Shown here: one piece after another, positions 22,518 to 52,443 of the stretch
Layout of the letters: every line of letters begins with the position of its first letter
How positions within the stretch are numbered: the stretch's first letter is position 1
Origin: a bacterium
GTDB taxonomy: Bacteria; UBA10199; 2-02-FULL-50-16; JAJFLM01
NCBI GenBank assembly: GCA_965216315.1
Contig: CBDCFN010000016.1
Location: 1,440,001-1,504,000, forward strand
Direction of reading: 5' to 3'
DNA: 64,000 nucleotides
The notes under the pieces: generated by a model
The model's input: only the letters and a program-made list of their open reading frames with translations
Told to the model about the DNA's origin: nothing
Databases searched by the model: none
Program-made: the position numbers and the translations under genes

Positions 22518-23447
22518 TTACAATTTGATTTTATCTAATATCTTTTGGGCCGACTCATAGGGATTCGTTCCATTTCCCTGAATAAGTTTTGATTCGGAAA
22601 CTTTTTTACTGACTTCTTCTAAGATAATTTCATGCGTTTCTTGAGTCGCCAACTGCTTGCGGCGCTCATCACTCAAGCCCTGTTGACGAAGGAATCGCCT
22701 GTGTTCATCGATGGCTTCGATAAGTTTATCGACGCCGACATCATCGCGCGCCTGCACCAAAAGCACGGGGACCTTCCATGTGGAATTTGTTTCCGAATTC
22801 CCTCGGCTACTCTGACTGATATCGATCATCGCCATCAGTTCTTGGGCCATTTGATCCGCCCCGGCGCGATCCGCTTTATTCACGACGAAAATGTCCGCGA
22901 TTTCCAGTATGCCCGCCTTCATAGTTTGGATTGTATCGCCTGATTCGGGGGTCAAAACGACGATCGTCGTTTCCGCAATCCCCATGATATTCAGTTCGGT
23001 CTGGCCCACTCCAACAGTCTCAACAATCGCCTCATCAAAACCGAAGGCATCGATCAATTTGACCATCTCACGGGTCGCGCGCGACACGCCACCCAGACTA
23101 CCCCGTGTTCCGAGGCTGCGAATAAATACCTGGTCGTCGCCGGCATGCTCCTGCATCCGGATACGGTCCCCCATCACGGCCCCACCGCTGAACGGACTGG
23201 AGGGATCAATCGCGACGACCCCGACGCTCTTACGGGCGGCCCGCAAATGGGCAATCAGTCGGTCGACCAGTGTACTCTTGCCGGCGCCCGGAGGTCCGGT
23301 CACGCCAATGGTATGGACGTGTCCACAACGCTCTTGGATCTCCTGCATAATGGAAAACACACCCTCGGCGCGGTTTTCTACGAGGGTCATCAGTCGCGAG
23401 AGTGCCAGGGGGTCTTTTTGAAGTAACTTTTCAACGAGTGGATGCAT
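22518..23447 (-). CDS. meaB: Methylmalonyl-CoA mutase-associated GTPase MeaB/ArgK
   Basis: GVTGPPGAGKST, DPSSPFSGGA..GDRIRM, ETVGVGQ, VVNKAD. Confidence 0.92.
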   Translation of the reverse strand: MHPLVEKLLQKDPLALSRLMTLVENRAEGVFSIMQEIQERCGHVHTIGVTGPPGAGKSTLVDRLIAHLRAARKSVGVVAIDPSSPFSGGAVMGDRIRMQEHAGDDQVFIRSLGTRGSLGGVSRATREMVKLIDAFGFDEAIVETVGVGQTELNIMGIAETTIVVLTPESGDTIQTMKAGILEIADIFVVNKADRAGADQMAQELMAMIDISQSSRGNSETNSTWKVPVLLVQARDDVGVDKLIEAIDEHRRFLRQQGLSDERRKQLATQETHEIILEEVSKKVSESKLIQGNGTNPYESAQKILDKIKL

Positions 23448-23510
23448 GGGTTTATTGAAACTATCGGAGTAAGTAGTTGAAATCAATTGAAATACCGTGA
23501 GAACCTGCAA

Positions 23511-23584
23511 CGGGTGGCGCGAGTAATCCTTGGGAACGTCTCTTCAGACGCAGCCCAAGGATTGCGACGGCGACAGGACCCGCC
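23511..23584 (-). repeat. ~75-bp palindromic dispersed repeat, copy 2
   Basis: Inverted copy of 20647-20720. Confidence 0.85.
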
Positions 23585-23656
23585 AACTTCTACTATAAAC
23601 TGTGGTTTTAGGCCCCCATCTGGGGTGTAAAACCCCCTATTTCCGGATCAGCTGAG

Positions 23657-23683
23657 CAACGTGATCAGCGCGACTGTCGATTA
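23657..23683 (+). promoter_or_regulatory. sigma28-like promoter
   Basis: CAAC-N15-GTCGATTA; the same motif precedes several other orphan genes. Confidence 0.5.
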
Positions 23684-23729
23684 TATAAATAATTACATGG
23701 ACTTATAATGTCCTCCCATGTCGGCGCGT

Positions 23730-23745
23730 TGGCACGGGACTTGCT
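23730..23745 (+). promoter_or_regulatory. sigma54 (-24/-12) promoter
   Basis: TGGCACGGGACTTGCT, an exact match to TGGCAC-N5-TTGCW, 45 nt upstream of ATG 23790. Confidence 0.82.
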
Positions 23746-23789
23746 ATATACTACGGTGAAGGATCAGTTCCTTCAGGAGAAAGAATAAT

Positions 23790-24824
23790 ATGTCAGATCC
23801 AGTAGGACAATACGAAGGCGTCAGCGAAATGATCGCCGAGATGATGGAGCAGATGCAGGAGTCTACGAATCAGCAGATTCGTCAGTCCAAGCGTACCATG
23901 ATCACGGAGATGGTCACGGCCCGCCAGCGGCGTGCCACGCAGTCCGTTTTCAATCAACTGGCTGACAACCTGATGGACATTCAATCGGCCCGTAATCTCC
24001 GCAAAGAACTCAAGATGGGGGCGCTTGAAACCGCTTCCGTCCCGGAGTGGAAATCCGCTGAAGAGGTCCGCGCCGAGGCGCCCGAAGTGAGCAAAGGCGG
24101 CGGCGATCCGCTCATCGCCAAATACCAAGGTCTCGCCGACAACTTAGGCGCGATTGTCGCTCACCTTGAAGGCGGTGGTAGCGTTGATGATAAAATGAGC
24201 GAGGCCGGACTCGAAGGCTTTGGGACCATGACGATTCGTCAGTTTCTCGAGGCCCAGAATATCAATCCCAACGACCTCAACGAAATCAAAGAAGCTCAGC
24301 AGGATGCCCAAGCCGTTGCCGATAAAATTGATGAATGGATGTCCAGTGCCACGGATCAATCAGTCGAGGAATTCATGGATGCCCTGTGGGACCGTGCCGA
24401 TAACCTCGATCCGGATACAGTCCAGGAGATCATGGATGCCGTTGAGCACTATAGTGAGATGAAGCGGATCCAAGGTGTCATTGATGAGGCCATTGCCGAT
24501 GGCGCGACCAGCGGGTTTGAAATCATCCTCTATATGACCGATACGTCAAAGGTTGCCGGCGGGGAAGAAATGCTTGAATATCTCGCCGCGCATGGCATTT
24601 TCCTTGAAGGCTCGGCCGATGAGGTCAAAAATGCCATCCAGGCCGAAGTCGACTCCGCCAAGGCCCACATGGATGCCGTAATCGAAGCGAACATGGATGA
24701 CAGCTATGTCGGCGAATCCAGCGTGAGCACGCAAAGTGCGATGCAGACCGCTAGCGACGAACTCAGCGCTCCGGACAGCTCAGAAGAGGACGAAGAGCTG
24801 GATGAGATCTTAAACGACCTCTAG
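23790..24824 (+). CDS. Acidic, Met/Gln/Glu-rich all-alpha hypothetical protein
   Basis: RBS AGGAGA; 344 aa; no signal peptide or catalytic motif. Confidence 0.85.
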   Translation: MSDPVGQYEGVSEMIAEMMEQMQESTNQQIRQSKRTMITEMVTARQRRATQSVFNQLADNLMDIQSARNLRKELKMGALETASVPEWKSAEEVRAEAPEVSKGGGDPLIAKYQGLADNLGAIVAHLEGGGSVDDKMSEAGLEGFGTMTIRQFLEAQNINPNDLNEIKEAQQDAQAVADKIDEWMSSATDQSVEEFMDALWDRADNLDPDTVQEIMDAVEHYSEMKRIQGVIDEAIADGATSGFEIILYMTDTSKVAGGEEMLEYLAAHGIFLEGSADEVKNAIQAEVDSAKAHMDAVIEANMDDSYVGESSVSTQSAMQTASDELSAPDSSEEDEELDEILNDL

Positions 24825-39570: not shown

Positions 39571-40296
39571 ATGCCTCATTCCCCTCGATCTTATCGGCTG
39601 TTACAGCAAGTCGTGGAAGGCCGCCGGACTTCTTACGTCACGCAGGCCTTGATGATCATCAATGTCGTCTGGTTCATTTATATGACGGCGGCGGGAGTCA
39701 GCCTGTCACGCCCGGATCCCCTGCTACTGGTCCGCTTTGGAGCGCTCTATTCCCCACTGGTTTATCAAGGCGAGCTATGGCGCCTGCTGAGCTGCCAATT
39801 TGTCCACATTGGCCTGCTCCATATCGGCTTCAATACCTATGTCCTCTACGCCATCGGCAAGGACCTCGAGATTCTCTACGGCCGGGTCGCCTTTTTGACC
39901 GTTTACCTGTTCTCCGGGACCTGCGGCGCCTTGGCCAGCCTCTGGGCCCACCCGGTCGGCCTCTCCGCGGGGGCCTCGGGCGCCATTTTCGGTCTCGCCG
40001 GGGCCGCGCTCTCTTTTTATTTACGCCTGCACGAGCCCATGCTCAAACAGGTCTTTCAACGCTGGCGGAATAGCCTGTTGGCGTTCGTCGGCTACAACGC
40101 CATCTTTGGCTTCATCGTCCCGGGCATCGATAATTTCGCCCACTTCGGCGGGCTGCTGGCGGGTTTTGCAATGGGCTATATCGTTTCGGCACCGGAAGGG
40201 ACTGAAACGGAGAGCTATATAAGGATAGGCGCGGGGATCATCGGCGGGCTAGGATTTCTCTACGCCGTCGCTAAATTACTCTCATTGCCGATCTAG
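39571..40296 (+). CDS. Rhomboid family intramembrane serine protease
   Basis: WRLL, HIGLLHIGFN, GASGAIFG, AHFGG. Confidence 0.93.
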   Translation: MPHSPRSYRLLQQVVEGRRTSYVTQALMIINVVWFIYMTAAGVSLSRPDPLLLVRFGALYSPLVYQGELWRLLSCQFVHIGLLHIGFNTYVLYAIGKDLEILYGRVAFLTVYLFSGTCGALASLWAHPVGLSAGASGAIFGLAGAALSFYLRLHEPMLKQVFQRWRNSLLAFVGYNAIFGFIVPGIDNFAHFGGLLAGFAMGYIVSAPEGTETESYIRIGAGIIGGLGFLYAVAKLLSLPI

Positions 40297-40358
40297 TGAC
40301 GCGATTGACATGTCCTCCGCATTTCGAGTACATGAAGCGCTCTGTAGATTTCTACCAA

Positions 40359-40431
40359 GCGGGAGTAGCTCAGTTGGTAGAGCATCACGTTGCCAACGTG
40401 AATGTCGCGGGTTCGAGTCCCGTCTCCCGCT
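40359..40431 (+). tRNA. tRNA-Gly (GCC); CCA not encoded
   Basis: Cloverleaf GCGGGAG...CTCCCGC-T; anticodon arm TCACG-TTGCCAA-CGTGA; GGTTCGAGTCC. Confidence 0.95.
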
Positions 40432-40442
40432 CATTGTTTTTC

Positions 40443-40480
40443 AAGGACTTAGCGCTCAGGCGTTAAGTCCTTTTTTCTTT
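40443..40480 (+). terminator. tRNA-Gly rho-independent terminator, overlapping the integrase stop codon
   Basis: AAGGACTTAGCGC-TCAG-GCGTTAAGTCCTT plus T run. Confidence 0.8.
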
Positions 40481-41571
40481 TGTGGGTGAAATGTGGGTGC
40501 AAGCACTTTCGCCCGACCCCCATCAATGGCCACTAACTCCGTCTTGCTCGCCACGTGCTCCGGCATCAGGTGCGCGTAGCGTTCCGTCGTTCTCAGGTCG
40601 CGATGCCCGAGCAGTTTCTGCAGATCGTAGAGGCTGCCCCCGCGCATCACGAATTGACTCGCGAAGGTATGGCGCAGATCGTGCCAGCGGATGCGCTGCA
40701 CTTCCGCTTCTTTCATGTCCCGCTCAAAGTGGTCGCGCTTGAAGTTGTACAGATTCAGTGGCCGGTCATTGAAGCCAACGACCAGGCGGCCGTTAGAATC
40801 ATACTTCTGCGCCACGAGAGCGGGCTTGAGAGACGAGTTGATGCCGACGTGACGGATCCGTCGCCCCTTGGTCGTTTCGCGGATCTCGCCGGTCTTCTGG
40901 CTGACGGTCCGTGAGACGATGATCAGGTTCTTGTTTAGATCCACCCGATCCCACTGCAGCGCTGCCAACTCACCCCAACGCAGCCCGGTGTTCAGGGCCA
41001 AGAGGTAGAGCCGGTAGACCCAGTTCTTACGCCGCGCATACTTTTCTCGACAATAGCTGAGAAAAGCATCTGCTTCTTCCACCGACCAATACGTGACGTG
41101 CACTTCATCCAGTGGCAGTTTGCCCGCCAAGGTAACCGGGTTGCGGTCGATGTAGCCAAGTCGCATGTCGTAGGTGAAGATCGGCGAGAGCGTCTCCAAG
41201 ATCCGATTAACCGTGGCCTTGGCACGCCCCTCACAGAGCTTCGAGCGGAGCCGGATGACATCCTCAACGCGGATCCGATCCAAGGGAGTCTCACCAAAGA
41301 ATGGTCTTAAGTGTTTCTCAACAATTCTCTGGTCCCCATGGAAAGAGTCCGGGCTCTTCGTCGGCCGAGAATGCTCGGCCAGCCATCGATCAGCCGCCTC
41401 GGCGAAGTGAATCGCCTGACGCAGCCCTTGGCTCGCCTTGCGGTGCTGCTCGACCAACCAGGTCTGCGCATCCAGCTTACGCGTAAAGCTTTGACTGGAC
41501 CGCTTACCACCATGGCAAAAGACCGCGCGATAGATGGTTCCTTTGTTTCGTTTAATCACCTCGATCGACAT
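40456..41571 (-). CDS. int: Tyrosine recombinase/phage integrase
   Basis: TGLRWGEL, HDLRHTFAS, LLGH, TTERYAH (R-H-R-H-Y intact); RBS AAGGAG before MSIEV. Confidence 0.96.
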   Translation of the reverse strand: MSIEVIKRNKGTIYRAVFCHGGKRSSQSFTRKLDAQTWLVEQHRKASQGLRQAIHFAEAADRWLAEHSRPTKSPDSFHGDQRIVEKHLRPFFGETPLDRIRVEDVIRLRSKLCEGRAKATVNRILETLSPIFTYDMRLGYIDRNPVTLAGKLPLDEVHVTYWSVEEADAFLSYCREKYARRKNWVYRLYLLALNTGLRWGELAALQWDRVDLNKNLIIVSRTVSQKTGEIRETTKGRRIRHVGINSSLKPALVAQKYDSNGRLVVGFNDRPLNLYNFKRDHFERDMKEAEVQRIRWHDLRHTFASQFVMRGGSLYDLQKLLGHRDLRTTERYAHLMPEHVASKTELVAIDGGRAKVLAPTFHPQKKKGLNA

Positions 41572-41782
41572 AAATGCTCCTTTCGTCAATCCAGGAGCGA
41601 ACTTCACGAGGATCAAACCGAATCAGGTTTCCAAGTTTCTTGAATGGAATGCGCCGCTTATACACCCAGTCCCGGAGGGTTCCTTCCGGTACGGAGAGCA
41701 TAAGGGACGCGGTTTTGATGTCCCATAGTCGATTGTCAAAGAGCTGCTGAGCTCCTTGCTCCGTATTATATTCGGGGTTCAT
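41552..41782 (-). CDS. Excisionase-like helix-turn-helix protein
   Basis: LWDIKTASLMLSVPEGTLRDWVYKRRIPFKKLGNLIRFD; overlaps the int start. Confidence 0.88.
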   Translation of the reverse strand: MNPEYNTEQGAQQLFDNRLWDIKTASLMLSVPEGTLRDWVYKRRIPFKKLGNLIRFDPREVRSWIDERSIYVDRGD

Positions 41783-42030
41783 ATGGCAATCGTCCTCTTT
41801 CAGGGACCAGCAATGCGCCTTCAAATTATGGAGCAGGATTTGTGCCAAAATGGGGCGTGAGTTTCTGATGTAATTTCAGAGACTTAAAATTAGTGCTTCT
41901 TGGGGTGGTGGTAAAGTTACCGGTAACTAATGGTGACTTTTGCATAAGTTACCACTTGCTATGCGCTCGAGTGAGACTTCATTGCCTAGGATTCCAGCCA
42001 CTAAATCGGTAAACTCAACAACACCGAAGC

Positions 42031-43044
42031 ATGGAACGCACAACTATAATAATTGCCAATGGACTCGGTATGGCGCTGGATCCTCAATTCTTCGCCATGC
42101 AAAGCGCTTTGGACGCCGTGTGGAATGGCACTCTTATGGACTTACCGGCCAAACAGCTGGTGAGCCAATGTCTCAGCCATGGCAACCCGCATCAAGCTCC
42201 TGCAGGTGAACACGAATTGGGCTTGTTGCATTTCGCCGTACAATCTTGCAATTTTCTTAGAAGTTTAGGCTCCCAATGGTTAACTCCAGATGCTGCCAGG
42301 TTACCGGAAAAGGTTAAGCAGTACATCGACTCAGTTGCGATATATTATCATCAATACGCGCAAAGCTTACCGGGGGAGTTCATAGATAGCCTTTGCGGCT
42401 TTATTCGAGACAATCCGGTTCATATAGGGACTCTTAATTATGACAATTTGCTCTATAACGCGCTTATCACGAAGGGAACCGTAGGGAGATATGATCAGGC
42501 AAGGCTCGTCGATGGTTTCTGGATGCATAGCGGAGGCTTCAAGCCCGATAATCTAGAGCGCCAGTTTGGTAATGATTTTGGTTGGTATATGCACCTCCAT
42601 GGGTCACCTCTTTTCTATGACCACAATTCCTCAATTAATAAGTTTGCCCAGGGAGACACACGGACGGGAGATCTAACATACCCTCGGCATGTGGTTCTAA
42701 CTCATATCGATCACAAGCAATCTGTGATCTTGAATAGCGAGCTATTGAAAACATATTGGTATTATTTGGTGCGTGCTTTATCGGAATCTAAAAGACTGAT
42801 ACTATTTGGCTACTCAGGGCAAGATAAGCATCTAAACCTGACGCTTTCAGGATGGTTCCGTTTCCTCATAGAAAACTTATCTGAGACAGACCTACAAGAT
42901 AAGCTAACTATTGTTGAATGGGATAATGGCGAGGAGAGAGCAGCTGCTGCAAGGGAGGTTTTTTGGCGCCAGAGACTCGAGCTGCCAGGTAATTTTCCGG
43001 TAGATATCCAATTGATGAGCAATATCCTGGCATATCGTTTCTAG
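42031..43044 (+). CDS. SIR2-like domain protein (putative anti-phage NADase)
   Basis: IIIANGL, TLNYDNLL, LVDGF, HLHGS, LFGYSGQD.H. Confidence 0.82.
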   Translation: MERTTIIIANGLGMALDPQFFAMQSALDAVWNGTLMDLPAKQLVSQCLSHGNPHQAPAGEHELGLLHFAVQSCNFLRSLGSQWLTPDAARLPEKVKQYIDSVAIYYHQYAQSLPGEFIDSLCGFIRDNPVHIGTLNYDNLLYNALITKGTVGRYDQARLVDGFWMHSGGFKPDNLERQFGNDFGWYMHLHGSPLFYDHNSSINKFAQGDTRTGDLTYPRHVVLTHIDHKQSVILNSELLKTYWYYLVRALSESKRLILFGYSGQDKHLNLTLSGWFRFLIENLSETDLQDKLTIVEWDNGEERAAAAREVFWRQRLELPGNFPVDIQLMSNILAYRF

Positions 43045-43252
43045 CACCCTAATATCCTATTGCATTCTTACCGACTTAATCGGACTTCCCACTGTTCGAT
43101 CTACTGACTGTCTACTCATTTCAAATTCCCGCCGCTCCCGCAGGCATGACCTTCTTATTCTCCAGCTGCATTCCCCATCCCTCTTCATGCCCATCCCTGC
43201 ACATCTTTATCTCTATATTTCAATTTCACTATCTATCACCACTACCACCGGC

Positions 43253-43471
43253 CCGAAATAGCACCCTCCAGCACCCGCAGCGTCCACTGACCCCAGTCTC
43301 TCTCATACTACCGACAGGTACGTAGAGAGAGTGGGGTCAGAGGTTTCCGGTATTAACCGGAAAAGCGAAGGGTACGATATTATGAGGCTATTTCAGACAC
43401 CGAGTTTCCGGTAACTTTCCGAAACCCGGAAACTTTACCGGAATGTTTGAGAGAACTTTTCGGCCGGAAAT
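43253..43471. repeat. Origin-like module, copy 1 (hairpin plus TTTCCGG iterons)
   Basis: Hairpin TGACCCC..GGGGTCA at 43288-43339; multiple TTTCCGG/CCGGAAA; homologous to 43679-43884. Confidence 0.75.
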
Positions 43472-43678
43472 TATGATCGGTCCTTCTTGTCTCTCATCTG
43501 ACCTGGATTTAATTGCCCAGCCCACTCATCTACCACCTTTGATTCGGCCCCTTGCTACTAACTGTGATCATCATCACAATCACCGCCAGCACCGCCACCA
43601 CCATCACCACAGAATCATCATTTTCTCTTCTTTCTATTTCTTAGTTTTTTAATTCTCTTAACACCACGCACCACCCAT

Positions 43679-43884
43679 CCGAAATTGCACTCCCAGCACC
43701 CGTAGTGTCTCGTGACCCCTATCTCTTGAAGTACTTACAGTACGTAGAGAGAGAGGGGTCAGGAGTGTCCGGCCCCAAGCCGGATAAACGAAGGGTGCGA
43801 TATCATGATGCAATTTCGGATTCCTTAATGTCCGGTACTACTAAGAACCGGACACATGACCGGACATTTTATGAATTGTCCGGT
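43679..43884. repeat. Origin-like module, copy 2 (hairpin plus TGTCCGG iterons)
   Basis: Hairpin at 43713-43761; TGTCCGG at 43766, 43829, 43877; CCGGA(C/T)A at 43780, 43848, 43860. Confidence 0.75.
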
Positions 43885-44223
43885 TTGAGTGCATTCTATT
43901 TCGCGTAAATTGCGCCAGAGGCAATTATCGGAAAATATCATGCAACCTAGCTAGGTAGGCTCACACTGTGCCCATGCACTCCATTTCACGCTAATCCCTT
44001 CTAAGGGGATTAATGGAAAATAGGATACAATACGTGAGTCAGTGATGGACAGTGCTTAAGCGCCTAACGAGATTATCATGCCCGGGATATTTCACAAATT
44101 TCACATTTTTTGTGAAATTGCTGATCTCCTTAGAATCGCTATAGAGCGCAAATCTAGCCCTATTAGACAGCAAATCTGCTCCCCTAAGATAAATCCTCAA
44201 TGATTACAGTAAGATATAACTAG

Positions 44224-44282
44224 CAACTTATCAGCATGTAAACCCGATAAGTATACTTGATACGTAAATCTAATTGGTTTAC
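44224..44282 (+). promoter_or_regulatory. TA promoter region: sigma28-like promoter and palindromic operator
   Basis: CAAC-N15-CCCGATAA (44224-44250); inverted repeat GTAAATCTAATTGGTTTAC (44264-44282). Confidence 0.5.
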
Positions 44283-44293
44283 AGTATAACATA

Positions 44294-44620
44294 ATGATCA
44301 CGGAGATCCGGTTCTCAGCGAAGGCCCAGCGGCAGCTCAAAAAATATAAGCGAAAACGCCAAATTCCGGATCATGCAATCGATAAATTGGACGTCTGGAT
44401 TGAGACCGTTGAGGAGTTCGGAATCAGCCATGCGCAGAAAGTGCCTAAATTTCACGATCACGCTCTCAAAGGAGATTGGCAAGGTTTCCGATCTATTTAC
44501 CTAGATATGACGACGTGGCGCGCAATTTATCAGATTAAGGTTACGACTAACCAGGATGGTGATGAAACCGTCGAAATAGAGTTTGTAGAAGTTGAGGAGG
44601 TGAACCCCCATGAGTACTAA
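44294..44620 (+). CDS. RelE-superfamily toxin (HigB/YafQ-like)
   Basis: FHDHALKGDWQGFRSIYL...WRAIY; toxin-first order with an HTH gene. Confidence 0.85.
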   Translation: MITEIRFSAKAQRQLKKYKRKRQIPDHAIDKLDVWIETVEEFGISHAQKVPKFHDHALKGDWQGFRSIYLDMTTWRAIYQIKVTTNQDGDETVEIEFVEVEEVNPHEY

Positions 44621-45101
44621 GAAAAAAAGCAAAGCTAGAAAGTTCCTAGAAGAACTTCGTGGTCATCCCTTGACCTTTGGCAAGATGATTGAGTCACTTC
44701 GCCTCAGCGATGGACTGACCCAACAAGAACTCGGCAAGCGAATGGGAGTTTCTAGGCAATTCGTCAATAACGTTGAAAAAGGTAAACCTATACGGCCAGC
44801 CCTGGCCGCTAAATTTGCGGTTGTCATGGGCTACTCGATCCCGATGTTCATCACTAAGGCTATCGAAGAAGAGCTAAGTCGAGAAGGAATTCCTCTTGAT
44901 GTGAAACTACCCCCTATTTCTCCCAGTGATGAACGTGAACTGATCACCAGTCTGATTAAATCAGGTGAATTTGAGAAGGCACAGCGGGATATTATTGTAG
45001 AAGCTCTAACCAAATTAAAAGCACCAGCGACCGAGGCAAAACGCTTAGTCCGACGCTATGTCAGTGACGTAAATAGCATTGAGGAGAGTGCGGTTGCTTG
45101 A
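44610..45101 (+). CDS. XRE-family HTH antitoxin (HigA-like) with C-terminal extension
   Basis: LTQQELGKRMGVSRQFVNNVEKG; overlaps the toxin stop. Confidence 0.85.
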   Translation: MSTKKKSKARKFLEELRGHPLTFGKMIESLRLSDGLTQQELGKRMGVSRQFVNNVEKGKPIRPALAAKFAVVMGYSIPMFITKAIEEELSREGIPLDVKLPPISPSDERELITSLIKSGEFEKAQRDIIVEALTKLKAPATEAKRLVRRYVSDVNSIEESAVA

Positions 45102-45121
45102 TAGCAAATAGCTCTCATTCT

Positions 45122-45139
45122 CACCCCATTTTGTGGGTG
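45122..45139 (+). repeat. 18-bp island module-boundary repeat, copy 1
   Basis: CACCCCATTTTGTGGGTG, identical at 47841 and 52077. Confidence 0.9.
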
Positions 45140-45156
45140 CAACTCAACTAACATCT

Positions 45157-45675
45157 TTAAATTTTCCGAGCATCATACGCCCAATGCAGCACGGCCTGTC
45201 GCTGCCGTTTACGACAACTTAGATCGCCGGCGCGACAGTTCTTGCGAATCTGCGTGATGTGGCGCCGGATTGCCTTCCAACGCTTGATCTGCCGCTGATC
45301 TTCTGTCGGTATCCGCCGTCCCATATAGTAGCGACAGTACCACTGAAACCAACCACGCGGATCCTCTGGATAGATCCATCCCTTTTTTCGCCACACGGAG
45401 AGAGGCTGACTTGCGTTGACACCGAAACAGTTAAGCTTGGCATTGCGCTTCTCTGGTGACAGCTTGGCGGTTTTAAACCATTCTTTGGGAAATTCCTGCT
45501 GACAATCGGTCATGTACTTGCCACCAAAGACTCCTAGTTGAAGCATCTGTTTGGGGCTGAGCTCTGGTTTAAATTCCGGATCAAAGTTTTTGCCGATAGG
45601 TTCCGTGAGATAGTAGCGATAGTCCTGCTGCATTTTGTCTCGAACAATCACAAGTTTTTTTCGGGTTCGCGTCAT
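45157..45675 (-). CDS. Conserved basic hypothetical protein
   Basis: Distinctive LGVFGGKY and DPRGWFQWYCRYYMGRR motifs; function unknown to me. Confidence 0.8.
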   Translation of the reverse strand: MTRTRKKLVIVRDKMQQDYRYYLTEPIGKNFDPEFKPELSPKQMLQLGVFGGKYMTDCQQEFPKEWFKTAKLSPEKRNAKLNCFGVNASQPLSVWRKKGWIYPEDPRGWFQWYCRYYMGRRIPTEDQRQIKRWKAIRRHITQIRKNCRAGDLSCRKRQRQAVLHWAYDARKI

Positions 45676-45688
45676 AAGAATAAAGAAA

Positions 45689-46591
45689 TTATTGGATCAA
45701 GGCGAGTTGCAGCGCTTCTTTGTAAGATAGTGGGTGGATAGGAAAGACTTGCAGCGCGCTCGTGTCCTCACAGATAACATCGTTTCTCAGTCCCTCCACC
45801 AAAGGACGTGTGATAGCAGCGGGGATCGGCGTCACGAGGTCAATCCAATAAGACGATAAGCGCGGCGTTAACACCGGTACATGAATCAGTTTGCGTTTCA
45901 GGCCGCGGGCTGCCGCATATTCTTGTATCATCTCTCCATACGTTAAGATTGTGGTGCCCCCGATTTCGAAGGTTTCTCCCGCACTTGCGGGAACATTGAG
46001 AGCCTGCACCAGATAGGCCAGAACATCACGCACTGCGATCGGCTGGACACGCGAGTCCAGCCAACGGGGGCAGATCATCACGGGAAGACGTTCAGTCAGG
46101 TACCGGATAATCTCAAAGGACACACTGCCCGAGCCGACAATAATCGCGGCACGAAATTCGGTCACCGGAATGCCGCTGGCTCGGAGCCAGTCGCCCACCT
46201 CGTGTCGACTGCTTAAATGGGCGGAAAGATCCTGCTGCTTCGAACCCAGTCCTCCCAGATAAATAATACGCTTGACCCCAGCCGCGGCGGCAACTTCGCC
46301 AAAATTTTGAGCTGCCTGACGATCCCGCTCTTCAAATGACGTGCCGCTTGTTGCCAAGGAGTGTATCAAATAATAGGCAACATCGATCCCGCAAAGGGCT
46401 CTTTTCAGTGTCTCTTTATCTAGGGCATCACCCGCCACTATCTCGACATCGGGCCAGTCGAACCCCACTAGCCGCTCAGGCTGCCGGGCCATACAGCGCA
46501 CGTGATGACCCTCTTTGAGTAGGAGGGGAACTAAGCGGCCACCGATATAGCCGGTGGCCCCGGTTACTAAGATCTGCTTCGCTTCAGTCAT
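45689..46591 (-). CDS. Atypical SDR NAD(P)-binding protein, YbjT-like (no C-terminal DUF2867)
   Basis: TGATGYIGG, YYLIHS, HLSSRHEVG, IIVGSGSVSFE, QPIAVRDV. Confidence 0.85.
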   Translation of the reverse strand: MTEAKQILVTGATGYIGGRLVPLLLKEGHHVRCMARQPERLVGFDWPDVEIVAGDALDKETLKRALCGIDVAYYLIHSLATSGTSFEERDRQAAQNFGEVAAAAGVKRIIYLGGLGSKQQDLSAHLSSRHEVGDWLRASGIPVTEFRAAIIVGSGSVSFEIIRYLTERLPVMICPRWLDSRVQPIAVRDVLAYLVQALNVPASAGETFEIGGTTILTYGEMIQEYAAARGLKRKLIHVPVLTPRLSSYWIDLVTPIPAAITRPLVEGLRNDVICEDTSALQVFPIHPLSYKEALQLALIQ

Positions 46592-47583
46592 GAGCGCTCT
46601 GCTCCCCGCCCTTTGCCTGAATCGGTAATCTCCACTAAGTCCAGCGGATAAGGATCAAAGTAAGCCTGCTGGGCGAGGTAGGCCTCCTCAAAACGCTGGA
46701 TCCAAGATTGCAAGATACCGATTGGCTGACTAAGCGGGACCTTGGCCGTTCGGTAGGCTTCAAGTGTCGTTAGAAAGTGCGCACGTTCTCGTGCAGTCAA
46801 CTGTTTGGAGAAATAGCCAAGGCCATGCATCAAGACGTTAATGTGGCTGCTAAAACGGGCCATTTTCACAAAGGCTCGCGCAAGCGCTTCCGCATAGGAT
46901 TCCAGCAAAGCCGTCAGTGGTCTCTGCTCGCTATTGGCAACAATTCGGCCTAAACAACGTAATTCTTTTTGTGAGTAGGCCATAAAGAGCAGCTTATGTT
47001 CTGTATGAAAGTTGACCAATGCCTTCATGCTCGGTCGTTTTTGGAGCTGCCGAAACCGAGCCCTCATATATAGCTTCGTCAAGAAATGTTCGCGGATACG
47101 AAAATTATTTAGACGACCTTCATCTTCCACCGCCAAATGTGAAAAGTGCTTAAGAACTGCCTCCCCAAAGAACCCGGCACTCTTGCCGAGCGATTGCGGT
47201 TCAGTTTCATTACTATATTGCTTCACATCTTTTATACCGCAACTAGGCGAGCGACCTTTCAAAACAAAACCATCGACCTTCTGCAGTGAGTGCAGATAGT
47301 CCGCACTAAACTGCTTCATTAGCTTCGTCAGATCGCGAGACGTGTTAGGTTGCTTCAAGTAGCGTCGCCCCGTCTTGCCGACGACAATTCGGACTGGGTC
47401 GCGAGGAATACCCAAACCGATCTCGACCTCCGGACAAACGGTGATAACATCAATCCGCTCAGCCAACTTGGCGACAAACTGGTCCTGAATACTCTGTGCA
47501 TTATAGCGGCAGGCCTCAAAATTGAGACAACGGCTGACAACAACACGCGGCCTTGGCTGCGATAACGCTTTAGGGGAATCCAT
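46588..47583 (-). CDS. DUF523+DUF1722 protein (YbgA / 2-thiouracil desulfurase family)
   Basis: SRCL...CRYN, VCPEVEIGLGIPR, KGRSPSCG, EDEGRL, FH..HKL. Confidence 0.88.
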   Translation of the reverse strand: MDSPKALSQPRPRVVVSRCLNFEACRYNAQSIQDQFVAKLAERIDVITVCPEVEIGLGIPRDPVRIVVGKTGRRYLKQPNTSRDLTKLMKQFSADYLHSLQKVDGFVLKGRSPSCGIKDVKQYSNETEPQSLGKSAGFFGEAVLKHFSHLAVEDEGRLNNFRIREHFLTKLYMRARFRQLQKRPSMKALVNFHTEHKLLFMAYSQKELRCLGRIVANSEQRPLTALLESYAEALARAFVKMARFSSHINVLMHGLGYFSKQLTARERAHFLTTLEAYRTAKVPLSQPIGILQSWIQRFEEAYLAQQAYFDPYPLDLVEITDSGKGRGAERS

Positions 47584-47746
47584 GTCGATGCAAATATATT
47601 CCAGACACGAGTCGTGAGGCAAACTAAAACGTGGTCTCAAATTGGGCTCGAATCCTCTTGTCGAAGGGTTAACACCCGTGACGGGCTCATGTTGATAGAA
47701 TTCTGTTCTCCACTGTGACTGCCGTTTGAAATGATTGATTTGGTGC

Positions 47747-47820
47747 GCGACTGAAGCAAAAGGATTCGTTCGGCGTTATGTCAGTGAAGAAAATGGCATG
47801 CAGGAACGTGCGATCGCATG
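47747..47820 (+). pseudogene. Remnant 3' end of a second HigA-like antitoxin gene
   Basis: Translates ATEAKGFVRRYVSEENGMQERAIA*, versus ATEAKRLVRRYVSDVNSIEESAVA* in the 44610 protein. Confidence 0.8.
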
Positions 47821-47840
47821 ATAGGAAATGGCTCTCATCC

Positions 47841-47858
47841 CACCCCATTTTGTGGGTG
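47841..47858 (+). repeat. 18-bp island module-boundary repeat, copy 2
   Basis: CACCCCATTTTGTGGGTG. Confidence 0.9.
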
Positions 47859-48146
47859 AACTGAGGGTGACTTATGCTACTACTTTTTTAATTCCAGCAA
47901 CTTTCCATAAAAACAATCGATATTATTAAGGCATATTGCTTGCTTTCTGAGAGAATCACTTGTATTGGAAGGCCAGCTAGTAACGATAATCTCATTCCCC
48001 AAGCGCTATTTTAGAGTGTCCCTTCCGCTGTCTTCGGTTACACCTCAAAAAATGAACACTTGTGAAATAGGCCTCAGCTTTCAAGGTCCGGGGGCAGTTT
48101 ACCGACGGCCCTGAATTCGTGAGGCACCGAAATAGAAGGAATAGAC

Positions 48147-49418
48147 ATGAAAAAGATATCTTTTGGCGAGCTCCAGCTCGTCGAACCCATTACACGTGCC
48201 CTAAGTGCCGATAATTACGTAAATCCTACCCCGATTCAAGCCAAGGCGATCCCTGCCTTGCTGGAAGGCAGGGACCTGATCGGCTGCGCTCAAACCGGCA
48301 CCGGTAAAACCGCAGCCTTTGCATTGCCTATTTTGCAAACAATTAGCATGAACCGTAGCAAGATCGGCGCCCGAAAAACGCGAGTTCTGGTCTTAACACC
48401 AACGCGGGAGCTGGCCGCCCAAGTAGGAGCTAGTTTTAAACGTTACGGGCGGCACCTTAAATTCAAGCACGCACTCGTCTTCGGAGGCGTCGGTCAGAAT
48501 CCGCAGGTCAGAAACCTGAGACGAGGCGTTGATATTCTGGTGGCAACACCGGGCCGACTCCTCGACTTGATGAACCAGGGACATCTCTCATTGAATGAGG
48601 TCGACACCTTTGTTTTAGACGAAGCTGACCGCATGCTGGACATGGGTTTTCTTCCCGATATTAAGAAAGTGATTGCCGAACTACCCCGCCAACGTCAAAC
48701 CGTATTCTTCTCGGCGACCATGGGAAAAGAAATCCTCCGGCTTGCCAACAGCATCCTAATCAATCCTGTCAAGGTGGAGGTAACGCCGCCGGCATCGACA
48801 CCCCAGCGTATTGACGAGCGTGTCCTGTTCGTGGATGACGGAAACAAGCGGGCATTACTCATGGAAATTCTTGATGGCCCGGACGTGGCGCGCACCCTAA
48901 TTTTCACGAGAACCAAACATGGTGCCAACCGCTTAGTCACTCAGTTGGGGAAAAAGGCCGTCAAAGCCCGCGCCCTTCACGGCAATAAATCGCAGTCCGC
49001 GCGGATGGCGGCCTTAAAGGATTTCCATCAAGGTCGTTGCAAAGTTCTAGTTGCCACGGATATTGCGGCCCGGGGAATCGATGTCGCCGGCATCAGTCAT
49101 GTGATCAATTACGACCTTCCAATGGATCCGGAAAACTACGTCCATCGCATCGGCCGTACCGCCCGCTCGGGTGCTACTGGCATCGCAATTTCTTTTTGCG
49201 GTGCGGCTGAACGGAAGTATCTGAAGGACATTCAGCGACTGCTTAACCGCTTAGTACCCGTCGACAAGAATCATTCCTTTCACTCAGTACAAGCCGCCGC
49301 TGCAGATCGCTGGCGTCACGCTACAAGCCAAAATGGTAAGTCAGGGAAAGCTTCTGCAAGTCAAAGGAGAAGGAGACATCAAAGGCATAAGCAGTCACGA
49401 GGGGCCAGGAATCCATAA
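48147..49418 (+). CDS. DEAD-box RNA helicase, RhlE-like
   Basis: PTPIQ, AQTGTGKT, PTRELA, DEAD, SAT, HGNKSQ, ARGID, HRIGRT. Confidence 0.95.
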   Translation: MKKISFGELQLVEPITRALSADNYVNPTPIQAKAIPALLEGRDLIGCAQTGTGKTAAFALPILQTISMNRSKIGARKTRVLVLTPTRELAAQVGASFKRYGRHLKFKHALVFGGVGQNPQVRNLRRGVDILVATPGRLLDLMNQGHLSLNEVDTFVLDEADRMLDMGFLPDIKKVIAELPRQRQTVFFSATMGKEILRLANSILINPVKVEVTPPASTPQRIDERVLFVDDGNKRALLMEILDGPDVARTLIFTRTKHGANRLVTQLGKKAVKARALHGNKSQSARMAALKDFHQGRCKVLVATDIAARGIDVAGISHVINYDLPMDPENYVHRIGRTARSGATGIAISFCGAAERKYLKDIQRLLNRLVPVDKNHSFHSVQAAAADRWRHATSQNGKSGKASASQRRRRHQRHKQSRGARNP

Positions 49419-49585
49419 GTATCTTGCGTCACAAACAACGACCCAGGTAGAGAGTCAAGCTCGTGGTATTGCTCATCAATAGGTCTTTTCCACTCTAGGA
49501 CCGGATCTACTCTGTCGGATATATAGCTTCTGCTATATCTATGAGTACATTTTCATGCTATCTTGATGTTAACGAAAAAATAAAT

Positions 49586-50083
49586 ATGACAAAATATTTT
49601 ACGACATTATCTCCCTCTGGTCTGCTGGGCTTACTTATCGGAATCGAAGCTTCAAATGCATTTCGGTATCGGGAGTGGGCTGATCGATTTCGTCCCTTTA
49701 ATGAAAAGGTCAGCGCATTATTTGATGAAATGGCAGATTGTGACGACGCTCATTATGATGATTTGTTCGCATTATATACTGAACAGTTCGGCAGTCTGAT
49801 TGCGTCAGATAATTCTCAAGAGATTGATAAGCATACTCAGGACGCAAAAGATGTAGAGGCGCATTTCTTTGTTGTCGATAATACGATGGCCAAGAATATT
49901 CTAACGGCGGCGCTCCACACATTGGCTAAGGCGCGTCATATCTATCAAGCAATCTTATCTAGGTCCCAAAGTACTGTACTGCGTAAGGCATACAAACCAC
50001 ATACTATTTCTGACTCGGGCCATACCCGAAGACTGAAGGATTATTTGCTGGAATTTCAACCGCTCCAACTCAAAGGCACTTAG
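49586..50083 (+). CDS. Degenerate rubrerythrin/ferritin-like protein (MbfA N-domain-like)
   Basis: IEASNAFRY, FDEMADCDDAH and HFFVVD; several di-iron Glu ligands appear lost. Confidence 0.6.
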   Translation: MTKYFTTLSPSGLLGLLIGIEASNAFRYREWADRFRPFNEKVSALFDEMADCDDAHYDDLFALYTEQFGSLIASDNSQEIDKHTQDAKDVEAHFFVVDNTMAKNILTAALHTLAKARHIYQAILSRSQSTVLRKAYKPHTISDSGHTRRLKDYLLEFQPLQLKGT

Positions 50084-50092
50084 ACAGCGTTA

Positions 50093-51277
50093 TCAACCAG
50101 CAAAATGCGGGAGCGAAAACCCTCTCATGGGATTGCGGGGCAACGATAGTTTGAGAAAGCGCTTAACGGTGGTCCGCAGTGTCTGCCCCCAACGACCGCG
50201 TTGATAACGAATGCCGTAACGTTTGCAAATAGCCTCTACCTTAGGCTGTATCTCACGGAGTCGATTGGGAGGTAATTTCGGAAACAAGTGGTGCTCAATC
50301 TGTATGTCCAAGGCGCCGCAGAGAATACTGATGGGGAGAGGCACGTCATAATTATGAGCCGCCTCAACTTGCGCCTTATACCATTCTCCTCGGCCGTGGG
50401 GCTTAAAATCTTTGTCATAATACTTCAAATCATCACCGAAATGACCCGCATAAATAGTCGCTGTGGAATAAATGTTCCGCATCATGTCCGCAGTTAGATT
50501 GCCGGCGAGGACTTTCCACCAAAAAGGACCCGCCAGCACCGGCCAGAGGACAAAGTTGTAGGCCGAATAGGGGATCATTTTTTTTAAGGTTGTTTGGAGG
50601 GCACGGGCCAAGGTTTTAGGTTTTCGGTCCGGCAATATCTTTGCGTAGGATCCGCCCTCACCGGAATGGAATAAGTCAGTGAGTCCCGTGGCATATGTGG
50701 CAATAATCCAGAGAAAGAAGGGGCCTGTCCAGAACAGCTGCGCCACCTGGAGTAAGTGATAAGGAATCCATGGAACTTGCGGAGCGGCCCGCATGATACC
50801 ATAGCTTAAGTCCGGATCCCTTCCCACAATGTTGGTATACTGATGATGCAGAATGTTGTGTTCGTGCTTCCAACTCCCTTCGTCGACCGGGGTCTTCCAT
50901 CTAAAGGAAGCGGAATAAAAGAGTTCGGCACCGGCTAATCCGTCCCAACAGCCATGCAAGGCCGAATGACCGATTTCGGTGGCGTGGAGTTGATTGTGCA
51001 GGGATAACGCAAAGACACCCGCCGACCAGGTCATGGGATCCAGGCTGAAGTGGATGAGGAAGCGACCCACGATTTCGGAGAACCGCGCCACCTGCTCGAT
51101 TTTCTTGATATAGGCCACATCTTCCTCGCCCAGCTTAGCATTGATGTCAGCATGAACCTCATCGAGATCGGCAGCAAAAGCGGCGTATTTTTCCTGTGTC
51201 CACGGAGAATCTGCAGAAATGGCAGCAGGCTTCCTGTGACGGACTTTCTTATGGCGATGGGTCTTGCGCTTATTCAT
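50093..51277 (-). CDS. Acyl-CoA fatty acid desaturase (DesB/DesA3-like)
   Basis: His boxes EIGHSALHG, HNILHH and QIEHHLFP. Confidence 0.92.
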   Translation of the reverse strand: MNKRKTHRHKKVRHRKPAAISADSPWTQEKYAAFAADLDEVHADINAKLGEEDVAYIKKIEQVARFSEIVGRFLIHFSLDPMTWSAGVFALSLHNQLHATEIGHSALHGCWDGLAGAELFYSASFRWKTPVDEGSWKHEHNILHHQYTNIVGRDPDLSYGIMRAAPQVPWIPYHLLQVAQLFWTGPFFLWIIATYATGLTDLFHSGEGGSYAKILPDRKPKTLARALQTTLKKMIPYSAYNFVLWPVLAGPFWWKVLAGNLTADMMRNIYSTATIYAGHFGDDLKYYDKDFKPHGRGEWYKAQVEAAHNYDVPLPISILCGALDIQIEHHLFPKLPPNRLREIQPKVEAICKRYGIRYQRGRWGQTLRTTVKRFLKLSLPRNPMRGFSLPHFAG

Positions 51278-51291
51278 GAGGGCTCCTATTT

Positions 51292-51309
51292 AGTAAACAC
51301 TTGTTTATA
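51292..51309. promoter_or_regulatory. FabR/DesT-type operator
   Basis: Palindrome TAAACA-CT-TGTTTA between the desaturase and the TetR gene; a second AACA-TC-TGTT near 51406. Confidence 0.65.
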
Positions 51310-51446
51310 AAATTGTGGTCTCTCTGACACATAGAGTCAAGGAAATAAGTGAAAAATAGTTTCTAGACAAGGCATTAACCAATATATAGCATGACTCCAT
51401 GGAGCGAACATCTGTTATAATAATGACACCAGGAAAGGAGAAGGCG

Positions 51447-52064
51447 GTGAAGCTGACCCGGACGGAGAAAAGGTCGAAAACACGTCGCGACCTCATTGAA
51501 GCCGCGCTCAGACTGATCGAAAAAGTTGGATTTGCCGGTCTCAGTCTCCGGGAAGTCACGCGCGAGGCGGGTGTCGCTCCGGCAACCTTTTATCGTCATT
51601 TCCATAACATGGATGATTTGGGCTTGGCACTAATTGATGAAGTGGGAATCTCGCTCCGGCAGCTGATGCGGCGTGCACGCAGGCGCGTCGGCGAAACAGG
51701 ACGCATGACGAGTACATCCGTCGACGTGTTCATGGAATTTATCGAGAACAATGGAAATCTGTTCCGTCTGCTCGTGGGAGAGCGTTCCGGGAGCACACCC
51801 GCATTTCGCTCCGCCCTTCGCTCCGAAATGAACCGTTTTATCAGTGAACTGAGAGAGGACTTAAAGCAACAATCTATTAAGTTGAACGCACCCCTAGATG
51901 ATGTGGCGATCGCCGCTCAAGCCATTGTAGCCGTCGTTTTTGCAACCGGCGTTGAGGCACTGGATGCGTCGGCCCAGCAAAATCATCAACTTGCAGAAGA
52001 ACTGATCCGACAGATTCGCATGATCCTTCGCGGTGCTGAACTTATGAGCCTGGATGGATCATAA
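51447..52064 (+). CDS. fabR: TetR-family repressor FabR/DesT
   Basis: LSLREVTREAGVAPATFYRHF..MDDLGLAL...LRQLMR.AR, ERSG; AGGAG then GTG start; divergent from the desaturase. Confidence 0.85.
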   Translation: MKLTRTEKRSKTRRDLIEAALRLIEKVGFAGLSLREVTREAGVAPATFYRHFHNMDDLGLALIDEVGISLRQLMRRARRRVGETGRMTSTSVDVFMEFIENNGNLFRLLVGERSGSTPAFRSALRSEMNRFISELREDLKQQSIKLNAPLDDVAIAAQAIVAVVFATGVEALDASAQQNHQLAEELIRQIRMILRGAELMSLDGS

Positions 52065-52076
52065 GGCAAATTCTCC

Positions 52077-52171
52077 CACCCCATTTTGTGGGTGAAATGT
52101 GGGTGCGCCACTCAAGAATGCTCGGAAACGCTCGGTAGTCCTCGGAATTCCGCCCCTGTAAGTTATTGTTT
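52077..52171 (+). promoter_or_regulatory. attR arm: 18-bp repeat copy 3, tandem TGTGGGTG arm-type sites, CTCGG x3 at 10-bp period (Xis-like), IHF-like site
   Basis: TGTGGGTGAAATGTGGGTG also at 40481-40499; CTCGG at 52121, 52131, 52141; TAAGTTATTGTTT near 52159. Confidence 0.65.
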
Positions 52172-52230
52172 TTAAAGCGAACGTAATTTCATGTTCTAAC
52201 TCGTAAATTGATCAATTCGAACAGATCGAA

Positions 52231-52352
52231 TTGCCAACGTGAATGTCGCGGGTTGGCCCAACATATAAAATAAGATATCGGGTCTCCCGTCTCCCGCTCA
52301 TTAGATTTCAAGGGCTTAGCGCTCAGGCGTTAAGTCCTTTTTTTTCTTTTTG
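52231..52352 (+). repeat. attR: displaced tRNA-Gly 3' half and terminator, with a 30-nt insertion in the T-loop
   Basis: Matches 40390-40482 except that CGAG is replaced by 52255-52284, plus a few changes downstream. Confidence 0.92.
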
Positions 52353-52443
52353 CAAATGAGATAATTAGCAGATAATTTAAGAAGGCTCGCGCACCCCCTT
52401 TACTTGACAAAACGATAAAGCGCGTACATTCAACGGTAAGCAC

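Follow-up and report, generated by a model that had tools for sequence, protein, structure and literature searches.

The window, i.e., the whole 64,000-nucleotide stretch of DNA analyzed here, contains a tandem pair of homologous non-coding units. With a probability of about 85%, these units are conjugative origins (oriTs) of the MOB_C (CloDF13/pAD1/ICEKp1) kind, located on a relaxase-less integrase island and moved by helper elements. Since no relaxase is present on the island, the most likely interpretation of the units is that they are conjugative origins of the borrowed type (iOriT, as in GIE492). An earlier reading made from the letters only had offered three options for this region, namely a multi-specificity ori/oriT adapter hijacking several helpers, a decoy array, and a structured RNA pair. 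The first option is favored here and narrowed to a MOB_C oriT; its further component, the use of different helpers by the two units, is plausible.

Organization of the Two Units

The region 43045-44293 is non-coding, with the longest stop-free frame being 88 codons. The two homologous units proposed in the sequence-only reading are real (Table 1). They are located approximately 425 bp apart and their cores are 74-77% identical; the leader CCGAAAT, the TGACCCC...ACGTAGAGAG...GGGGTCA hairpin, and the arrangement of heptamers are common to both. The plan of a unit includes a pyrimidine tract, the leader, the GACC...GGTC inverted repeat, a heptamer pair, CGAAGG, the outer arm, and further heptamers. 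Counting from the right arm, the inverted heptamer pair is found at +9/+22, CGAAGG at +31, and the other heptamers at approximately +70, +91, +103, and +120-129. Inverted repeats TGACC..GGTCA of such quality were found only five times in the 2.96-Mb genome, and all five belong to these modules. In addition to the two units, the source genome (G000) contains three further modules, one each in a tRNA-Asn island with an integrase, in an integrase-carrying element of contig C3, and on contig C8.

The concerted heptamer switch noticed earlier was also confirmed. TTTCCGG has five exact copies in unit 1 and none in unit 2, and TGTCCGG has none and five, respectively; the genome-wide expectations per 230 bp are 0.05 for TTTCCGG and 0.04 for TGTCCGG. 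The Fisher value for this segregation, with one imperfect site counted, is 0.002, which overstates the significance because sites within a unit are not independent.

Table 1. Features of the island and of the two predicted oriT units (positions in the window).
Feature	Position	Strand	Comment
tRNA-Gly(GCC) gene (40359-40432) and left attachment site	40359..40481	+	3' part duplicated at 52231-52350
Tyrosine integrase	40456..41616	-	Pfam Phage_integrase, E 4.5e-24
Excisionase-like HTH_17 protein	41552..41848	-	Domain scan of ORFs
SIR2-like domain protein	42031..43044	+	Cargo, possible defense; Pfam SIR2_2, E 1.1e-8; weak PADLOC PDC-S21
Pyrimidine-rich tract before unit 1	43045..43250	+	70% C+T
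Unit 1, predicted MOB_C-type oriT	43253..43470	+	TTTCCGG class; leader at 43253, CGCAG at 43276, core inverted repeat, CGAAGG at 43366, outer repeat arm at 43387
Unit 1 core inverted repeat	43284..43343	+	Nick predicted between 43335 and 43336 (GAGTGGG|GTCAG)
Unit 1 heptamers	43344..43470		Inverted pair 43344/43357; predicted relaxase-binding specificity sites
Unit 1 distal heptamers	43405, 43416, 43426, 43438, 43464		1 mismatch each at 43416 and 43438
Pyrimidine-rich tract before unit 2	43480..43675	+	68% C+T
Unit 2, predicted MOB_C-type oriT	43679..43883	+	TGTCCGG class; leader at 43679, CGTAG at 43701, CGAAGG at 43789, perfect 13-bp outer repeat 43677-43689/43809-43821
Unit 2 core inverted repeat	43709..43765	+	Nick predicted between 43757 and 43758 (GAGAGGG|GTCAG)
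Unit 2 heptamers	43766..43883		43766/43780 (second with 1 mismatch), 43829, 43848, 43860, 43877
TTTCACA (two copies) + inverted TGTGAAA cluster	44086..44121		No third oriT core
RelE-family toxin + HTH antitoxin pair	44294..45101	+	Side predicted to enter the recipient first
RhlE-like DEAD-box RNA helicase	48147-49418		Cargo, no replication protein
Right attachment site, tRNA-Gly 3'-end copy	52231..52350	+	About 30 extra bases at 52255-52284

A strong pyrimidine skew had been ascribed to the spacers in general. It holds for the tracts preceding the two units, being of a strength found in 0.04% of 200-bp segments of the genome, but not for 43983-44118, where the pyrimidine fraction is 0.50. The tract before unit 1 is conserved from 43145 on in the tRNA-Asn-island and C3 copies. 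Unit 2 and its tract travel together, as 43513-43885 is 83% identical to a segment in G001:C225, a contig from another genome of the same family. A hydrophobic frame of 24-26 codons is also present on the minus strand of the unit 2 spacer (43530-43620) and in the copy at L013:7620-7700; it is probably a low-complexity product of GTG repeats.

A third hairpin had been placed at 43983-44118, but this stretch is not a third module, as the covariance model, run with filters off, found only the two units in 40300-52400. It consists of a weak 16-nt hairpin and a TTTCAC(A) cluster. Conservation elsewhere is limited to 44086-44121: 34 of these 36 nt are common to G001:C225 (L013:7253-7288), where they lie downstream of a unit-2-type module. 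The repeats of the cluster are spaced like the distal ones of the modules, and the step from TTTCACA to the TGTCACA of another genome (G083, see below) is the same T/G change as that between units 1 and 2. This cluster may be an operator or a coreless third key.

The Island and Its Cargo

The units belong to an att-bounded island of the tyrosine-integrase type (40359-52350), which starts at a tRNA-Gly gene and ends at a duplicated tRNA 3' end. Its integrase is 87% identical to that of a sister island (G001:C176) and 36-38% identical to the integrases of G083 and G018. Neither relaxase, coupling protein, nor mating genes were found on the island by six-frame HMM, tblastn, and ORF scans; six-frame HMM and tblastn also gave no relaxase remnant, and no primase or Rep was found among the island ORFs scanned. 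Thus, the earlier statement that the island encodes no primase, helicase, or relaxase stands for primase and relaxase, but a helicase is present, namely the RhlE-like cargo protein. The right attachment site is interrupted by approximately 30 nt, so the island may no longer excise, and this copy is perhaps now fixed. No excision joint was found among the assembled contigs matched to the island, although contigs cannot exclude excision.

The cargo block 47961-51209 includes genes for the DEAD-box RNA helicase, a rubrerythrin-like protein, and a fatty-acid desaturase. This block is shared with the tRNA-Asn island (L001:16155-19381, 73-81% identity) and partly with G001:C56 (L012:2311-2999, 68%). 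These islands share the oriT family of the window, although their integrase is unrelated to that of the window, and the cargo appears to travel among these hitchers. The integrase-arm-like motif CCCCATTTTGTGGGTG was found three times inside the island, at 45125, 47845, and 52080 (also at 40478-40500), suggesting successive right ends and a stepwise accretion of the island. The tRNA-Asn island likewise has two copies of the tRNA end.

Modules Upstream of Relaxase Genes

In the source genome, the module on the 4-kb contig C8 is located approximately 150-190 bp upstream of a gene for a 265-aa protein. This gene is followed by a gene for a TraD/VirD4-like coupling protein, and a TrbI/VirB10 gene is located on the other side of the module. 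Homologs of the 265-aa protein, identified below as a relaxase, were found in 10 of the 93 genomes of the phylum, and nine of these matches are strong. An HMM built from units 1 and 2 only had matches in seven of the eight relaxase loci then available (E 1.2e-24 to 0.019). In each of these seven loci, the best match is intergenic, is located upstream of the relaxase gene, and has the same orientation. A model built from seven relaxase-less copies scored 6.8-91 bits at the loci, compared with a best score of 6.4 in 20 block shuffles; the match in L028, at 6.8 bits, is marginal. In the missed locus (L030) and in one added later (L048), the inverted repeat was seen directly. In total, the GACC...GGTC inverted repeat is present in all nine strong relaxase loci; the module is absent at the weak tenth relaxase match (G001:C134). 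One relaxase was also found in 120 genomes of a sister phylum, with a diverged repeat upstream (E 0.007).

A coupling-protein-like gene follows the relaxase gene in all nine loci. In four genomes (G057, G030, G063, and G062), a full VirB4-containing type IV secretion operon is followed by the module, the relaxase, and the coupling protein; mating-pair genes are located on the other side of the module in these loci and, in part, on C8. Such a position, between mating-pair genes and relaxase, is that given for MOB_C oriTs (bioRxiv 10.64898/2026.01.13.699239). No tblastn matches for VirB4, B6, B8, or B9 were found in the source genome. Because the homologs in the loci read adjoin relaxase and coupling-protein genes, and not primase or RepA genes, the heptamers are predicted to be relaxase-binding sites and not the Rep iterons that had been suggested. 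Nor do the units look like decayed 3' ends of rep genes, since sister islands have conserved the module and no coding remnant was found.

Several other features of these loci were observed. In G018:C5 (L034:15288-19485), the module is followed by genes for a MOB_C relaxase, a coupling protein, an excisionase, and an integrase at tRNA-Lys; this integrase is 38% identical to that of the window, and no mating genes were found in the stretch read. This element is an intermediate between an ICE and an oriT-only island. The same module and gene pair were found at a contig end in G039:C148 (L085). A protein of 73-83 aa adjoins the module in four ICE loci (L003:2559-2786, L031:18872-19090, L033:7455-7703, and L035:1997-2239). 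Its C8 copy has no match in Pfam, NCBIfam, or PHROG, and it is a candidate accessory or single-strand-binding factor. In all four full ICE loci, an ORF whose translation is Ser/Thr-kinase-like is found at the start of the secretion operon or close to it (L035:10330-11985, L033:15773-17467, L036:13994-15724, and L031:9247-10896).

The Partner Relaxases

The C8 protein falls among the Replic_Relax clusters of the Atlas (0.97). Alone, it scores below the PF13814 cut-off (15.2 vs. 25.3 bits), and 27 of its 41 aligned homologs match this family. The homolog set comes from an exhaustive search that yielded 47 proteins, of which fragments and two repetitive proteins were dropped before alignment; a word-index search returned the query only. 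Comparison of the family profile with the TraX-type relaxase of pTEF1 by hhalign gave 95% and E 2e-8. Residues D151, E164, K170, and R174 are invariant in the nine local relaxases and in the relaxases of pTEF1 and pMET1. The partner relaxases have a D..ExE..K..R motif and, according to the model, an N-terminal winged helix. The predicted structure (pLDDT 89.5) consists of the winged helix followed by a nuclease-like domain; a fold search with this model gave weak matches only (best E 8e-5, TM 0.28).

MOB_C relaxases are restriction-enzyme-like, and TraX has an N-terminal winged helix and binds five repeats located 70-120 bp from nic (PMC12857230). No covalent intermediate is reported for MOB_C relaxases in the same source, and their binding is far from the nick. 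Judged by sequence and predicted structure, the partner proteins are Replic_Relax/MOB_C relaxases.

Comparison with Known Mobilization Systems

Inverted repeats of the same kind were found in three known systems. CloDF13 has CTGACCACCC...GGGTGGTC upstream of the mob genes, and the oriT region of pMET1 has GACCAACC...GGTTGGTC. In the pAD1-like pTEF1, the inverted repeat upstream of the relaxase is CCTGACCA...TGGTCAGG; its left arm is preceded by CGTAG and, in the same place as in the units, by a pyrimidine tract. Five direct repeats follow at +77 to +125, compared with +70 to +129 for the distal heptamers of the units. Two nic sites were placed in the repeat of pMET1 (PMC2262945). The ICEKp1 nick is GGTTG|GTCGCG (PMC7755788), and its alignment to the right arm predicts the nicks listed in Table 1. 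For unit 1, a mirror-image nick on the opposite strand, within the left arm of the core repeat, is possible. Five relaxase-linked modules carry GGGTGGTCA, whereas the units of the window carry GGGGTCA instead. The arms of the units have GGGG/GTCA compared with GG(G/T)TG/GTC in known nicks, and the G|GTC core and the inverted repeat are common. Neither the HMM nor the covariance model of units 1 and 2 detected the oriT regions of CloDF13, pMET1, or pTEF1, so the likeness to known oriTs is one of short core and layout only.

The units share with MOB_C oriTs the GACC...GGTC core, the nick-like motif in its arm, and, in their homologs, the position beside relaxase and coupling genes. They differ in the fixed CGHAG motifs at approximately -57, -14, and +31, in the mixture of direct and inverted heptamers, two of which follow the core immediately as a pair, and in the helper gene order, with the relaxase preceding the coupling protein.

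The island as a whole resembles GIE492 and other iOriT islands, which are tRNA-targeted tyrosine-integrase islands without relaxase or mating genes, carrying an oriT of a MOB_C conjugative family with defense or toxin-antitoxin cargo beside it (PMC4891358; PMC5704250). In contrast to the iOriT islands, the oriT family found here is apparently different, its environmental lineage is outside the six species surveyed (bioRxiv 10.64898/2026.01.13.699239), the oriT is present in two tandem copies with different repeat codes, and mobility is predicted. A second parallel is provided by the pWBG749-family mimics of Staphylococcus aureus plasmids, in which a relaxase-less element carries several oriT variants with a conserved core and variant specificity repeats (PMC4652767). 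Those elements are plasmids served by another relaxase family, with specificity set by the accessory SmpO and distinct specificity shown (PMC4652767), whereas the element studied here is an integrative island and the predicted reader of the repeats is the winged helix of the relaxase itself. In the literature searched, which covered few subscription journals, no report was found on this oriT family, on tandem MOB_C oriTs with distinct repeats on islands, or on a multi-oriT strategy of integrative islands.

Relaxase-less Copies and Repeat Specificity

DNA of unit 1 was matched in 2 of the 101 genomes searched. The covariance-model search matched 13 of the 93 genomes of the phylum and added relaxase-less copies. 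Four such copies were found in the source genome and three in G001. Relaxase-less copies are located in integrase-excisionase islands: in the window, the tRNA-Asn island, C3, G001:C176, G001:C56, G083, and G045:C4. A half module (G045:C1) and a repeat-only locus (G070:C302) were left out of the counts of full modules, and a match in G071 (E 0.004), lying between housekeeping genes, was dropped as chance.

Blastn of the units against a plasmid collection gave three short unrelated matches. The C8 relaxase had no match there, and the G018 module had six AT-rich chance matches. Among the matches listed in a pattern scan of a genome collection, two of four were true copies, without any new locus, and two were due to chance; all four metagenome matches were due to chance. 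In viral contigs, neither the module pattern nor the relaxase was found.

At the same offsets, the relaxase-linked modules carry different repeat classes: GCAGGC/GTCAGG (C8), TGTCAG (G057), ATTGGC (G063), TGTTACA (G062), and GACTGCA (G070). The relaxases with differing repeat classes share 23-42% pairwise identity. For the hitcher G045:C4, located beside an integrase, the closest module is that of the G057 ICE, from the same genus; the two are 70% identical and both have three TGTCAG repeats.

A second tandem pair was found in G083:C78 (L080:11305-11840 = 23304-23839), in a relaxase-less tRNA-Ala integrase-excisionase island from another family. Its two modules are 410 bp apart and 75% identical, and they precede genes for a helicase and a type IIG restriction-modification protein. 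Here again the repeats are segregated, TGTCAC being distributed 10:0 and TGTTAA 0:8. The relaxase has no match in the G083 genome, which is 83% complete. Taken together, the pairs of the window and of G083 mean that tandem modules with segregated repeats occur in two families and in different sub-lineages of the module.

The two units of the window are not each other's sisters: G001:C176 forms a group with unit 1, and G001:C225 and C8 fall together with unit 2. Resolution of the module tree is poor, with support for 3 of 17 branches, and only these two starred groups were used. Unit 2 with its spacer stands alone in G001:C225, which makes its addition as a cassette likely; the sister island in G001:C176 has unit 1 alone.

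These data allow two readings. According to the first, the units, coming from different sub-lineages, answer to two related helpers; we give this about even odds. In its general form, which we hold at odds just short of even, this reading says that relaxase-less islands of the lineage repeatedly built tandem "two-key" MOB_C oriTs approximately 410-425 bp apart. In each oriT, a change of one or two bases across all repeats would provide the fit to a different helper relaxase. The set of modules (TTTCCGG, TGTCCGG, TGTCAG/GTCAGG, TGTCACA, TGTTAAA, TGTTACA, and others, perhaps with TTTCACA at 44090-44117 as a third key lacking a core) would in that case amount to a natural code for the specificity of MOB_C relaxases and would record hitcher-helper escape. 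Neither TTTCCGG nor TGTCCGG repeats were found in a helper among the nine relaxase-linked modules of the 93 phylum genomes. The co-resident C8 module, with a core 75-77% identical to that of unit 2, contains neither heptamer. The interrupted right attachment site also weighs against two helpers.

The second reading, a realistic possibility at somewhat below even odds, is that one helper class serves both units, the T/G difference being tolerated drift and the pair arising by cassette accretion or co-integration. The heptamers differ at only one of seven bases, and three sister units (the tRNA-Asn island, C3, and G001:C56) mix them, with four to six TGTCCGG and two TTTCCGG each. Each unit occurs alone in G001, and the arm-like motifs inside the island point to accretion. 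Double oriTs are read as dimers or co-integrates in a survey in which 85% of islands carry one oriT (bioRxiv 10.64898/2026.01.13.699239). Against a single helper class, segregation is complete in both tandem pairs, and the repeat class varies among relaxase-linked modules at the same offsets. In addition, multi-oriT plasmids of S. aureus mostly keep different subfamilies (58 of 67; PMC4652767).

Alternatives to an oriT

The units could instead be decoys that soak up the helper relaxase and thereby curb the transfer of the helper or its autoregulation, which is quite improbable. Such a role would fit the several copies per genome, the interrupted right attachment site, and a repeats-only fragment of the tRNA-Asn-island module, which was observed at G000:C16:1051567-1051623, approximately 9.4 kb from the full copy. 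However, titration needs repeats only, whereas the core with the predicted nick is kept in six of the seven relaxase-less copies of the sub-family (G001:C176 has GGCC). The copies are located in integrase islands, and the same layout in GIE492 was read as mobilization (PMC4891358).

It is very improbable that the units are replication origins of the excised circle on which a Rep or the replication-relaxation protein acts in trans. The hairpin with iteron-like repeats, the family name replication-relaxation, and a weak match of the C8 protein to a phage 'replication initiation protein' profile (E 2e-4) agree with such a function. Nevertheless, the gene after the relaxase is coupling-protein-like in all nine loci and no primase or RepA gene lies beside a module in the loci read; rolling-circle replication started by the relaxase would represent a secondary function of this oriT.

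That the two units are structured non-coding RNAs is extremely improbable. Covariation is strong, both partners being changed in 16 of the 21 pairs (score 0.50 vs. 0.17 shuffled and at most 0.17 slid), but DNA inverted repeats also covary, and the five invariant pairs form the nick-like motif. A scan of 40000-48500 gave no Rfam family other than tRNA, promoter-like sites number four against 2.7 expected, no terminator was found, and the stem mismatches, nine G-T and ten A-C, are about equal and thus have no wobble bias on either strand.

Proposed Mobilization and Its Significance

Under the preferred oriT reading, the integrase and excisionase of the island would circularize it, and a helper relaxase would bind the heptamers through its N-terminal winged helix and nick the core inverted repeat at G|GTC. 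Export of the strand would then rely on the coupling protein and type IV system of the helper. The toxin-antitoxin side would go first, as deduced from the orientation of the module relative to the relaxase in helper loci. In the recipient, the integrase would re-insert the island at tRNA-Gly.

This finding offers a mechanism for the spread of small islands with defense and toxin-antitoxin genes in an uncultured lineage and defines the oriT family of this lineage. MOB_C relaxases are poorly understood; their specificity becomes testable with nine relaxase-module pairs in which the core is fixed and the repeats are exchangeable. Should the members of a tandem pair serve different helpers, the multi-oriT strategy shown on staphylococcal plasmids would also be one of integrative islands.
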